Assembly (NCBI GenBank): GCA_964016885.1
Contig: OZ024762.1
Coordinates: 372,001 to 436,000 of the forward strand
DNA: 64,000 bases
Source: Eledone cirrhosa
Taxonomy: Eukaryota
Reading direction: 5' to 3'
Shown here: positions 47,440 through 53,441 of the stretch, in pieces
Layout of the letters: each line of letters starts with the position of its first letter
How positions within the stretch are numbered: the stretch's first letter is position 1
Position numbers and translations under genes: made by a program
Notes under the pieces: model-generated
The model's input: only the letters and a program-made list of their open reading frames with translations
The model's database searches: none
What the model was told of the DNA's origin: nothing

Positions 47440-47516
47440 GTGACTTACACTGACATCATACATACATACATACATACATATATATATATACATATATACA
47501 CATGTATATACATACA

Positions 47517-47550
<34 letters not shown>

Positions 47551-47567
47551 CATATACATATATATAC

Positions 47568-48205
47568 AAATGTAAAACAAAGATCGAGGATGTAAGCCAC
47601 ATTGTTGCCAGCTGCGAAAGAATGTCATCTCGCTACTACCTCCCCATGAGACACGATGGGATAGCTAGAACCATCTGGAACGCACTTCGGAAAACAAAAT
47701 TAACAACAAACGAGGAAGAGTATATTGAGACAGATGGCACTAAGGAATACTGGTGGAACCTGAAGATAAAAACTGCCACCAAATTAAAGCACAACCGGCC
47801 TGATATTGTAGTTTGGGACCACCCATTGAAAACGTGTTCTGTTGTGGAGATCAGCTGCCCACTTGATGTAAACGTTGTCAGAAAAATACAGGAGAAGGAG
47901 GACATCTACTGACCATTGATGAGGAGTTACAAATCCAGTATACACCTTTAGCTTCATACCCATCATTATTGGAGCTACGGGTTATATACCAACCCGCTTG
48001 GACCAAAGTATGACTGAACTTGGATTTGCGGACAAAAAGCGCAGCGCCCTAATTCATAGTCTACAAATGGCTGCGATAGCTGGCACCTTCAAAATTTGCA
48101 AAACATTCTTGCGATTCAAGGGATGACAATTTCTTTTCTTTTACAACCTTGTCACCAGGAAGGTAGCCGATCAAAAATATACTCGAAATTAAGAGAAAGA
48201 GATAA
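47568..48205 (+). mobile_element. 5'-truncated R4/Dong-type non-LTR retrotransposon (zinc knuckle plus restriction-like endonuclease), decayed
   Basis: CKTKIEDVSHIVASC...RHDGIA...HNRPDIVVWD...CSVVEISCPLDVNVVRKIQEKEDIY* then frameshift to FSFIPIIIGATGYIP...AGTFKICKTFLRFKG*; embedded in CATA/TA microsatellite. Confidence 0.88.
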
Positions 48206-48581: not shown

Positions 48582-48730
48582 ATTGAAAGCCTTGAAGATG
48601 AGCTCCATTCTAAGGAAGTTCAACTAAAATCTAGTCAAACTCGTTTAGCGTCGGTTGTTCCTGATTCTGAGGACAAAGCTTTAACTTCTTTAGAAGAATC
48701 ACTAACAGAGAAAGATCGGATTATTACCAG
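48582..48730 (+). CDS. ERC1: ERC exon F
   Basis: ttttcag|ATT...AG|gtaagg, 149 nt, ends phase 2; IESLEDEL...ALTSLEESLTEKDRIITR (cf. ALTTLEEALAEKERTIER). Confidence 0.93.
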
Positions 48731-49196
48731 GTAAGGTATAGCCAGAGTTACCTGCCCTTGTCGGTGTTGATGATGATGATGATGATGATGGTGGTGGTGA
48801 TGTGGATGATAGTGGAGATGATGATATTGGTGGTGTTGGTGATGATTGTGGTGGTGGTGGTGGTGGTGGTGATGATGATGATGGTTGTGGTGGTGATAAT
48901 GATAATGATGTTGATAAGAATGATTGTAGTTATAATATTGGTGATGGTGATGGCGGTGGTGGTGATGGTGGTGGTGATGATGGTTGTGGTGATGTGGATG
49001 ATAGTGGAGATGATGATATTGGTGGTGTTGGTGATGATTGTGGTGGTGGTGATGATGATGATGATGGTGGTGGTGATAATGATAATGATGTTGATAAGAA
49101 TAATTGTAGTTATAATATTGGTGATGGTGATGGCGGTGGTGGTGGTGGTGGTGGTGGTGGTGATGATGATGATGATGATGTGTAATTGTATTTCAG

Positions 49197-49320
49197 GTTA
49201 CGAGATCAGCGAGAACGCGTAGAAGACGAACTTACAGATGAAAATAACATTCTCAGGGAACAAAACGAGGATTACAAGGGCCAGATTGATCAGCTGAACA
49301 CTGAGGTTAACGATAAACAG
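49197..49320 (+). CDS. ERC1: ERC exon G (first of 16 possible in-frame donors)
   Basis: tttcag|G TTA CGA...CAG|gtgaga, 124 nt, phase 2 to 0; LRDQRERVEDELTDENNILREQNEDYKGQIDQLNTEVNDKQ. Confidence 0.9.
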
Positions 49321-50022
49321 GTGAGACTAATTAATTACCTGAACACTGAGGTTAACGATAAACAGGTGAGACTAATTAATTACCTGAACACTGAGGTTAA
49401 CGATAAACAGGTGAGATTAATTAATTACCTGAGCACTGAGGTTAACGATAAACAGGTGAGATTAATTAATTACCTGAGCACTGAGGTTAACGATAAACAG
49501 GTGAGATTAATTAATTACCTGAACACTGAGGTTAACGATAAACAGGTGAGACTAATCAATTACCTGAACACTGAGGTTAACGATAAACAGGTGAGACTAA
49601 TTAATTACCTGAACACTGAGGTTAACGATAAACAGGTGAGGCTAATTAATTACCTGAACACTGAGGTTAACGATAAACAGGTGAGACTAATCAATTACCT
49701 GAACACTGAGGTTAACGATAAACAGGTGAGGCTAATTAATTACCTGAACACTGAGGTTAACGATAAACAGGTGAGGCTAATTAATTACCTGAACACTGAG
49801 GTTAACGATAAACAGGTGAGACTAATTAATTACCTGAACACTGAGGTTAACGATAAACAGGTGAGGCTAATTAATTACCTGAACACTGAGGCTAACGATA
49901 AACAGGTGAGACTAATCAATTACCTGAACACTGAGGCTAACGATAAACAGGTGAGACTAATCAATTACCTGAACACTGAGGTTAATGATAAACAGGTGAG
50001 GCTAATTAATTACCTGAACACT
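49294..50022 (+). repeat. 45-bp minisatellite (16 copies) spanning the exon G splice donor
   Basis: Unit ctgaacactgaggttaacgataaacag|gtgag(a/g)(c/t)taattaattac = 27 exonic + 18 intronic nt. Confidence 0.97.
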
Positions 50023-50050
50023 ATGTTTAGATGTTATTTTAATTACTAAA

Positions 50051-50228
50051 GGGTAGTGATTGGCAGTATAGGTAGAGCTTTGCAGCATAAAGTTATGGCC
50101 CTTTACATTCTAAGTTCAAATCCCACCGAGGTTAACTTTGCCTTTCATCCTTACGAGGTCAATAAAATGAAGTACCAGTAATGTACTGAGGTAATTGCTG
50201 GCCTTGTACCAAAAGTAGAAACAATTAT
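50051..50228 (+). mobile_element. tRNA-derived SINE (same subfamily as 46188-46366 and about 31530-31675)
   Basis: tggcagtataggtagag...aagttcaaatccc...gcctttcatccttacgaggtcaataaaatgaagtaccag...gtagaaacaattatt. Confidence 0.85.
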
Positions 50229-50270
50229 TTTAATTTCTGTGTCATCTATATTACCATCATATGTTGGTCT

Positions 50271-51130
50271 GGTGTTGATATAGTACTGAACTGACCCTTT
50301 AGTCTCCCCCCCAGTGTTGATATAGTACTGAACTGACCCTTTAGTCTCCCCCCCAGTGTTGATATAGTACTGAACTGACCCTTTAGTCTCCCCCCAGTGT
50401 TGATATAGTACTGAACTGACCCATTAGTCTCCCCCCAGTGTTGATATAGTACTGAACTGACCCTTTAGTCTCCCCCCCCCCCCCCAGTGTTGATATAGTA
50501 CTGAACTGACCCTTTAGTCTCCCCCCCAGTGTTGATATAGTACTGAACTGACCCTTTAGTCTCCCCTCAGTGTTATAGTACTGAACTGACCCTTTAGTCT
50601 CCCCTCAGTGTTATAGTACTGAACTGACCCTTTAGTCTCCCCTCAGTGTTGATATAGTACTGAACTGACCCTTTAGTCCCCCCTCAGTGTTGATATAGTA
50701 CTGAACTGACCCTTTAGTCTCCCCCCCAGTGTTGATATAGTACTGAACTGACCCTTTAGTCTCCCCCCCAGTGTTGATATAGTACTGAACTGACCCTTTA
50801 GTCTCCCCTCAGTGTTATAGTACTGAACTGACCCTTTAGTCTCCCCTCAGTGTTGATATAGTACTGAACTGACCCTTTAGTCCCCCCTCAGTGTTGATAT
50901 AGTACTGAACTGACCCATTAGTCTCCCCCCCAGTGTTGATATAGTACTGAACTGACCCTTTAGTCTCCCCTCAGTGTTATAGTACTGAACTGACCCTTTA
51001 GTCTCCCCTCAGTGTTGATATAGTACTGAACTGACCCTTTAGTCCCCCCTCAGTGTTGATATAGTACTGAACTGACCCATTAGTCTCCCCCCCAGTGTTG
51101 ATATAGTACTGAACTGACCCTTTAGTCCCC
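50271..51130. repeat. ~42-bp minisatellite, about 20 copies
   Basis: Unit cagtgttgatatagtactgaactgaccctttagtctcccc(c)n. Confidence 0.95.
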
Positions 51131-51818
51131 CCCCCCCCCCCCCTCACCTATGTATGTTGTCATGTTTCTACAGGGACATTCTCTACATGCTGTAGACTAC
51201 ATTTCTAGTTTTACAATTTATTTGGGGATTTATTCTACATATTAGACATTTCTTATTACCGCTGTACAGATGAGACAGTGGGGGTGGGGGTGATAGTGGT
51301 GGGGGGTGGCTGTGGTAGAGGTGATGTTATTGTTATGAAGTGTTTGTGAAGAGTCTCCATTTGTAAGCTGACTGATTGATTCATTCATTGATACATTGAT
51401 TATATGTGGGGTGGGGGGGTGACACTGTTGAATCCTCTCTCTCTCTCTCTCTCATTACATACACAAATACACACAGGGCACTCTCTCTCCCCTTTCTCTC
51501 TCCTCTCTCTTTCTCTCTCTCTCCTCTCTCTCTCTCTCTGTCAACCACCTCCACTATCCCCTCCTACTCACCCCTACCACTCTCCTCCTCTGATATAGAT
51601 TTCATTCAATGACAATTCCCATATTGTTTCAATAACAACAACAACTACAATAACAATAACAACAGCTACAACAACAAAAATAACAACAGCTACAACAACA
51701 CTCTACAATCCTTTGAACATCAGACAACATATCCTGTACTATTTACTTTCTGTTCTTCATCTCTGTCTGTCTGTCTGTCTGTCTGTCTATATATTTGTCT
51801 ACCTACAAACCTATTTAC

Positions 51819-52356: not shown

Positions 52357-52503
52357 AGCCAGATGTGTGAGTTGAGAGAAGAAGCTTCTGAACTTCGGTC
52401 ACAGAAAATGATGTCAGAGTCTATGATAAACCAACTAAAGATGGAAATATCGGACACTACCAAGGATCGGGAGATTGAGAAACTTACTAAAGAATTGGAA
52501 AAG
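52357..52503 (+). CDS. ERC1: ERC exon H
   Basis: tgacag|AGC...AAG|gtaatt, 147 nt; SQMCELREEASELRSQKMMSESMINQLKMEI... An alternative in-frame CAG acceptor lies 6 nt downstream. Confidence 0.88.
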
Positions 52504-53271: not shown

Positions 53272-53441
53272 GTGAAAGAAGAACTGAGTGAGATGAAGAG
53301 TTCCTCCAGATTTGCGAATGGTAAGATCGGTGAAGACAACCTGGACGACACTCAGCTGAAAGTCCAAGAATTAGAGGCAGCAATAGAAGAAGCTAACAAG
53401 GAGAAGGAACAGAGGGATGTACAAATGAAAGAACAACAAGA
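53272..53441 (+). CDS. ERC1: ERC exon I
   Basis: (gtt)n gtaag|GTG...GA|gtgagt, 170 nt, phase 0 to 2; VKEELSEMKSSSRFANG...KVQELEAAIEEANKEKEQRDVQMKEQQ. The AAG acceptor is weak, so the 5' boundary is less sure. Confidence 0.8.

Follow-up and report, generated by a model that had tools for sequence, protein, structure and literature searches.

Does an array that repeats an exon end, its splice donor and the start of its intron sixteen times over, in frame and without a stop, let a synaptic scaffold be made at different lengths, or does it leave with the intron like any other repeat? The question is raised by a locus of Eledone cirrhosa within a window of 64,000 nucleotides (the whole stretch of DNA analysed here; contig OZ024762.1, positions 372,001 to 436,000), where the array lies across the end of an exon of the gene for the active-zone protein ELKS. 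The evidence leads us to regard it, with considerable confidence, as an ordinary junction repeat, silent or nearly silent, and not as a protein-length switch.

Results

The host gene and its exon frame

The Pfam model Cast (PF10174) matched seven of the 12 reading frames scanned, six of them above the cut-off, and the closest protein was Octopus bimaculoides ELKS, at 92% over the query exon. With the O. bimaculoides protein as query, tblastn aligned 14 segments collinearly inside the window, plus two close by on its downstream side. Judged by these matches, the host gene is a true ERC/ELKS gene, the octopod orthologue, and the identity and exon anatomy given in the preliminary description are supported. 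Residues 1-328 of the orthologue gave no tblastn match in the window, 1-39350 included, or in the 120 kb upstream (C23:252001-372000); the 5' exons may lie further away, may be too diverged or of too low complexity, or may be absent from the assembly, which has a 200-N gap at 3185-3384. The most diverged ELKS exon, at 53272-53441, is 47% identical to O. bimaculoides, with a gap, in a region whose length differs between octopods and squids. Frames at 47460-48110, in an ELKS intron, resemble a fragment of a non-LTR retrotransposon protein when their translation is read by eye. The features around the array are as follows.

48582..48730, plus strand: ELKS exon F, 149 nt, ending in phase 2 (Pfam Cast; tblastn; its 3' end precedes exon G in the contig of sequencing run X4)
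49197..49320, plus strand: ELKS exon G, 124 nt, of which the final 27 nt form the exonic portion of unit 1; the authentic donor lies between 49320 and 49321 (tblastn; X4 contig aligned over 49194-49320 without differences, its splice falling at 49320)
49294..50022, plus strand: 45-bp minisatellite, 16 units and a 9-nt partial unit, with 15 extra CAG/GTGAG donors at 49365...49995 (sequence, TRF, genome search, contigs of runs X1-X3)
50047..50049, plus strand: stop codon of the read-through frame (ORF 49186-50049)
50050..50235, strand unassigned: very high-copy interspersed repeat, putatively SINE-like, holding the intron's sole AATAAA (50161) (tens of thousands of reads or contigs in all four runs)
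50272..51135, strand unassigned: second, unrelated minisatellite of 41-42 bp, about 21 copies, in the array's intron (TRF)
52357..52503, plus strand: ELKS exon H, 147 nt, with a phase-0 start; acceptor joined to donor 1 (first 30 nt equal the X4 contig sequence past 49320; tblastn)

Because the lengths of exons F and G sum to a multiple of three, every donor of the array is in phase 0, and the frame through F, G and H was open from each of the four donors tested (1, 2, 5 and 16), so the claim of phase-0 donors matching exon H was borne out by frame arithmetic and by these trials. The read-through frame does end at 50049, as had been proposed. Exons ending at donors 2-4 would measure 169-259 nt, inside the size range of the exons of this gene.

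Structure and variation of the array

The array consists of 45-bp tandem units, 16 of them complete (49294-50013), followed by the 9-nt partial unit (50014-50022), the copy number of 16 being the figure of the assembly, with no single contig or read seen across the whole array. TRF describes it as period 45, 16.2 copies and 97% matches, and as a tandem array it is far beyond chance. Unit 1 is made of the 27 nt from the end of exon G and 18 nt of intron. The motif CAGGTGAG occurs in 16 copies, its last exonic base falling at 49320 + 45k and ending at 49995; CAG/GTGAG is kept in all 16 units, the donors being identical from -3 to +5, with A at position +6 in 11 units and G in five. The 16-copy donor array of the preliminary description was thus found as claimed, with donors from 49320 to 49995. 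Identity between units is 91-100% (mean 96%), with six variant sites defining seven distinct unit types, and neighbouring units share variants in blocks, so that the types run block-wise along the array. Two of the six variant sites alter residues and four are synonymous (P=0.13); four units differ in translation, with N>S in units 4-5 and V>A in units 14-15. Of the uniform repeated peptide that had been described, the stop-free, in-frame part stands and the identical translation does not.

Queried with exon G and the first part of the array, the genome gave 15 matches, all of them at the ELKS locus (these counts being lower bounds), and the unit is, as far as such a search can tell, of local origin from unique sequence. 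Every unit carries V, or A derived from V, where Octopus and squid sequences have I. Since this holds for all units, the array either postdates the change from I to V or has been homogenised with the exon. We infer a local duplication after the lineage's own exon sequence had been fixed, the copies then multiplying through slippage or unequal exchange, and the blocks of shared variants would be as expected of repeat turnover. Between the 9 nt ahead of every later unit and the 9 exon bases ahead of unit 1, 6/9 positions agree (P ~0.015). Slippage may have been seeded by an imperfect direct repeat at 45-bp spacing, or the first duplication may have comprised 36 exon and 9 intron bases, three sites having changed before amplification.

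Donor use in transcripts and in related species

In run X4 a single contig of 3,350 nt (depth 20.7) joins exons F, G and H through 49320; it matches exon G with 0 differences, flanked on one side by the 3' end of exon F and on the other by the opening 30 nt of exon H. The run shares its organism label with X1-X3; tissue and kind are unrecorded, and we take it to be RNA because its contig is spliced. Contig depth in X4 was 0 on the intronic units examined, 49326-49400 and 49950-50048, in this one run and with contigs that drop rare variants. The alignment threshold was 90%, against a unit identity of at least 91%, and contigs from other units should mostly have aligned. An abundant form made from a downstream donor would be expected as a contig of its own, because the exon piece common to the units, at 27 nt, does not fill one 31-letter index word. 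The mRNA in X4 is mainly cut at the authentic, most upstream donor, in one run and at contig level. Transcripts with extra units or with read-through were absent among the X4 contigs. The preliminary description had held that donor choice could insert 0-15 copies of the unit, and this finds no support, the sole spliced form seen being the one through 49320; its fallback, a neutral minisatellite in which only the first donor is used, agrees with the X4 contig. That all junction reads use 49320, which it had set against its own proposal, applies here at contig level and to one run of unrecorded tissue.

Further outcomes were considered and rejected. A read-through, truncated isoform had also been proposed, and no X4 contig lies over 49326-49400 or 49950-50048, an absence that is weak evidence by itself; the intron's only AATAAA sits inside the high-copy repeat. 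Recursive splicing between CAG/GT sites, and a role of the units as micro-exons, were set aside on inspection of the sequence: the AG is not preceded by a pyrimidine tract, and the exon pieces are a mere 18 nt apart. The putatively SINE-like repeat itself starts about 30 bases past the end of the array, and it is abundant in the spliced-contig run X4 too. Runs X5-X20 (share 0.17-0.25), which come from other organisms and metagenomes, were left out, their share being attributed to a GGT/GAT microsatellite in the query.

The comparison with related species that the preliminary description had suggested lends no support to insertion either. Among 35 cephalopod ELKS sequences, 25 span the junction and all 25 are single-copy, without the insert, the other 10 having no match to the junction motif; the peptides VRLIN and INYLN were found in none of 150 proteins. 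Since every junction-spanning relative is single-copy, donor 1 is the ancestral one. The single-copy form of the relatives says nothing on donor use here, as those species may lack the array.

The best placed of the alternatives is an unregulated leak, with human CBS and 6-16 as precedents (Borensztajn et al. 2006, PMC1557585): a sizeable minority of transcripts would be cut at donors 2-3 and would encode 15 or 30 additional residues that have no selected function. Because the frame is kept, such a longer ELKS would escape nonsense-mediated decay; positions -3 to +5 do not vary among the donors, a helical insert is predicted (see below), and minor forms can hide from contigs. Against this stand the X4 contig, unbroken across the junction, the lack of any X4 contig on the intronic units, the expectation that an abundant second form would appear separately, and the exclusive use of the first donor in F7, LMNB2 and PDGF. 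We consider a leak on this scale unlikely.

Is the in-frame, stop-free unit special?

A unit that is both in frame and stop-free has a chance of about 1/3 x 0.77 = 0.26, five intronic codons being stop-free 77% of the time, and the period was divisible by three in 14 of 38 minisatellites sampled. The in-frame length is most probably accidental; it also means that a rare slip to donor 2 or 3 would cost little, as the reading frame survives. Nor do the intact donors need selection, to judge from the variant sites: an 8-nt donor core free of variants has a chance P=0.29 given six such sites. The sole hint of coding constraint comes from the 18 intron-derived nucleotides, where 3/3 variant sites are synonymous (P=0.04, for a subset chosen post hoc).

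An AlphaFold2 model of exon G with nine units gave one continuous helix, with pLDDT 94.9 in two of five models and 63-77 in the other three; it was built from a single sequence, with no control fold, and is weak evidence. The helical prediction favours tolerance of an insert. The hydrophobic amplitude of the repeat is 0.012 at period 3.5, 0.144 at 3.75 and 0.183 at 2.5, and since the repeat has no heptad signal, an insert would be expected to break the canonical coiled-coil register.

These data bear on the proposal that donor choice in neurons, among all 16 sites, lengthens the coiled coil in steps of 15 residues, or that read-through truncates it, with selection keeping the frame. It can draw on donors that are all intact and in phase, on the synonymous lean of the intron-derived part, on the single-helix models, and on the nature of ELKS, which forms a coiled-coil scaffold at the active zone and whose internal exons may be alternative (PMC5830537). 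It has to contend with the absence of extra-unit and read-through transcripts among the X4 contigs, with 25 of 25 junction-spanning cephalopod proteins that have no insertion, with the missing heptad signal, and with donors whose integrity is expected without selection in an array where two of six variants change residues. We give a regulated length tuner very little credence.

The array against the minisatellite background of the genome

TRF annotates 37% of the window as tandem repeat and finds in it seven minisatellites with a period of at least 20 and at least five copies, the second one in the array's intron included. Elsewhere, 15 were counted in 190 kb from 19 contigs (19 of the 20 stretches requested) and 23 in the 199.6 kb adjoining the window, 10 of these 38 being dropped by eye as recurring families. 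From such densities chance alone would place roughly 300-600 donors inside such arrays, of which some 80-170 would keep the frame without a stop, a rough expectation that assumes 100,000-200,000 introns (a number not measured) and ignores selection. A screen of exon edges found a junction array at none of 30 myosin loci (30 of 72 matches) and none of 30 HECT loci (30 of 43); about 0.4 would be expected in these 60 loci, and the result neither supports nor contradicts the estimate. Further along the ELKS gene, a 48-bp minisatellite of about 10 copies (56744-57210) starts 7 bases past the donor of a later exon, the donor itself being excluded; its unit keeps an open frame and belongs to a dispersed family, since it recurs in two other loci (L029 and L040).

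The same genome has another exon end and donor in tandem, in the gene for ECM29.

L108, G000:C9:10597710-10600958, minus strand: ECM29 donor array, 41-bp unit (motif count in the locus)

The locus contains 36 donor motifs, the array running past its edge, and the unit shifts the frame, with a stop right after the donor. This array was found in one of four loci and in a preselected gene, which is no unbiased sample. Because its unit shifts the frame, donor arrays evidently persist in the E. cirrhosa genome regardless of frame.

Short contigs from runs X1-X3 cross unit-to-unit junctions of the ELKS array and carry its variants, so that neither the unit nor its tandem order is confined to the assembly, with the qualification that X1-X3 may be the assembly's own sample. 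Two of the three RAD runs of the set were tried for copy-number differences at the array end, where X21 had depth 0 and X22 depth 1 over some 49 bases, both being swamped by the high-copy repeat at 50050-50235. An assembly artefact, which an uncalibrated copy number and the lack of any contig or read across the whole array might suggest, is barely credible given these junction-crossing contigs, seven unit types arranged in blocks and no N within or near the array.

Discussion

The best account of these results is that the transcript is cut at the first donor, the 15 other copies probably leave with the intron, and a protein of normal length is made. The spliceosome would pair the acceptor of exon G with the nearest downstream donor, and identical donors located 3' would lose by position. 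This mechanism is borrowed from mammalian cells, where it was described for human F7, and in molluscs it is a candidate only. The positional reading of ELKS is weakened by human CBS and 6-16, which use downstream copies, and by perfect pseudo-sites that can compete; the donor of the ELKS array is one base short of the perfect consensus.

As it stands, the array matters little, being an additional minisatellite across a splice junction in a genome already rich in repeats. It would be of modest use for testing, in a natural molluscan setting, how a 5' splice site is chosen: slips could be counted in RNA-seq, unlike those in frameshifting arrays, because 16 equally strong, in-frame donors let them survive decay. 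Real interest would follow if downstream donors were used in neurons, as this would amount to a repeat-encoded length ladder in a synaptic scaffold, a VNTR read by splicing that resizes the active zone's scaffold. That neurons splice at the near-consensus downstream donors, so that ELKS comes in a series of isoforms whose central coiled coil gains helical inserts of 15 residues each, over a length range set by the repeat number of the allele, seems to us very improbable.

Relation to known junction-spanning arrays

Searches of the literature for a VNTR combining an alternative splice donor with an in-frame repeat unit found nothing, and those on ELKS, octopus and the active zone returned no title or abstract opening that names this array. 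ELKS is a coiled-coil active-zone scaffold whose isoforms arise from alternative starts and C-termini, with internal exons that are potentially alternative (PMC5830537); the part of this review consulted describes no repeat-based length ladder of the kind proposed for the ELKS array. What a coding VNTR with a regulated 5' splice site would display, transcripts with extra units, is absent from the X4 contigs (one run, with rare forms dropped). The array does show the features of a junction-spanning minisatellite: a first copy spanning the boundary, a reiterated donor, a local origin and, in one run at contig level, use of the upstream donor.

The closest relative of this arrangement is the 37-bp VNTR in intron 7 (IVS7) of human F7, where, in the portion of the paper available (Borensztajn et al. 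2006, PMC1557585), the most upstream of the identical donors alone is used, in-frame pseudo-sites are likewise unused, and the downstream copies become functional once the first donor is knocked out. In the F7 constructs perfect-consensus pseudo-sites did compete, the first site being weaker there. The same text reports that CBS intron 13 and 6-16 intron 2 use two downstream copies too, and that LMNB2 and PDGF intron 4 use the first donor only. As in F7, the first ELKS unit lies across the exon-intron boundary, identical donors extend into the intron and the most upstream one is used in mRNA. Unlike F7, the ELKS unit includes 27 exon bases (four in F7) and is present in 16 copies (five to nine in F7), none of the 15 extra donors shifts the frame or brings in a stop, and the donor is nearer to consensus.

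Among invertebrates, the amphioxus "mirage" minisatellites of Adh3 and of the globins BflGb6 and BflGb9 are tandem duplications of exon-intron boundaries that undergo concerted evolution and, as far as the text at hand states, leave normal splicing undisturbed (PMC3087553). The ELKS array resembles them as an invertebrate exon-intron boundary in tandem; the length instability is a result from amphioxus, another lineage. In the chicken, "exon stuttering" expands the lateral part of an exon and its splice site into the adjacent intron, with 1-44 copies in 236 introns of 115 genes; it is concentrated on dot chromosomes, and the sections consulted present alternative transcripts as potential only (bioRxiv 10.1101/2025.09.16.676548). 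As in the chicken, an independent, intron-only repeat lies beside the ELKS array, here at 50272-51135. The class is thus already described, in the junction minisatellites of human F7 and CBS, the mirages of amphioxus and the exon stuttering of the chicken, and the ELKS array of E. cirrhosa is a further case.
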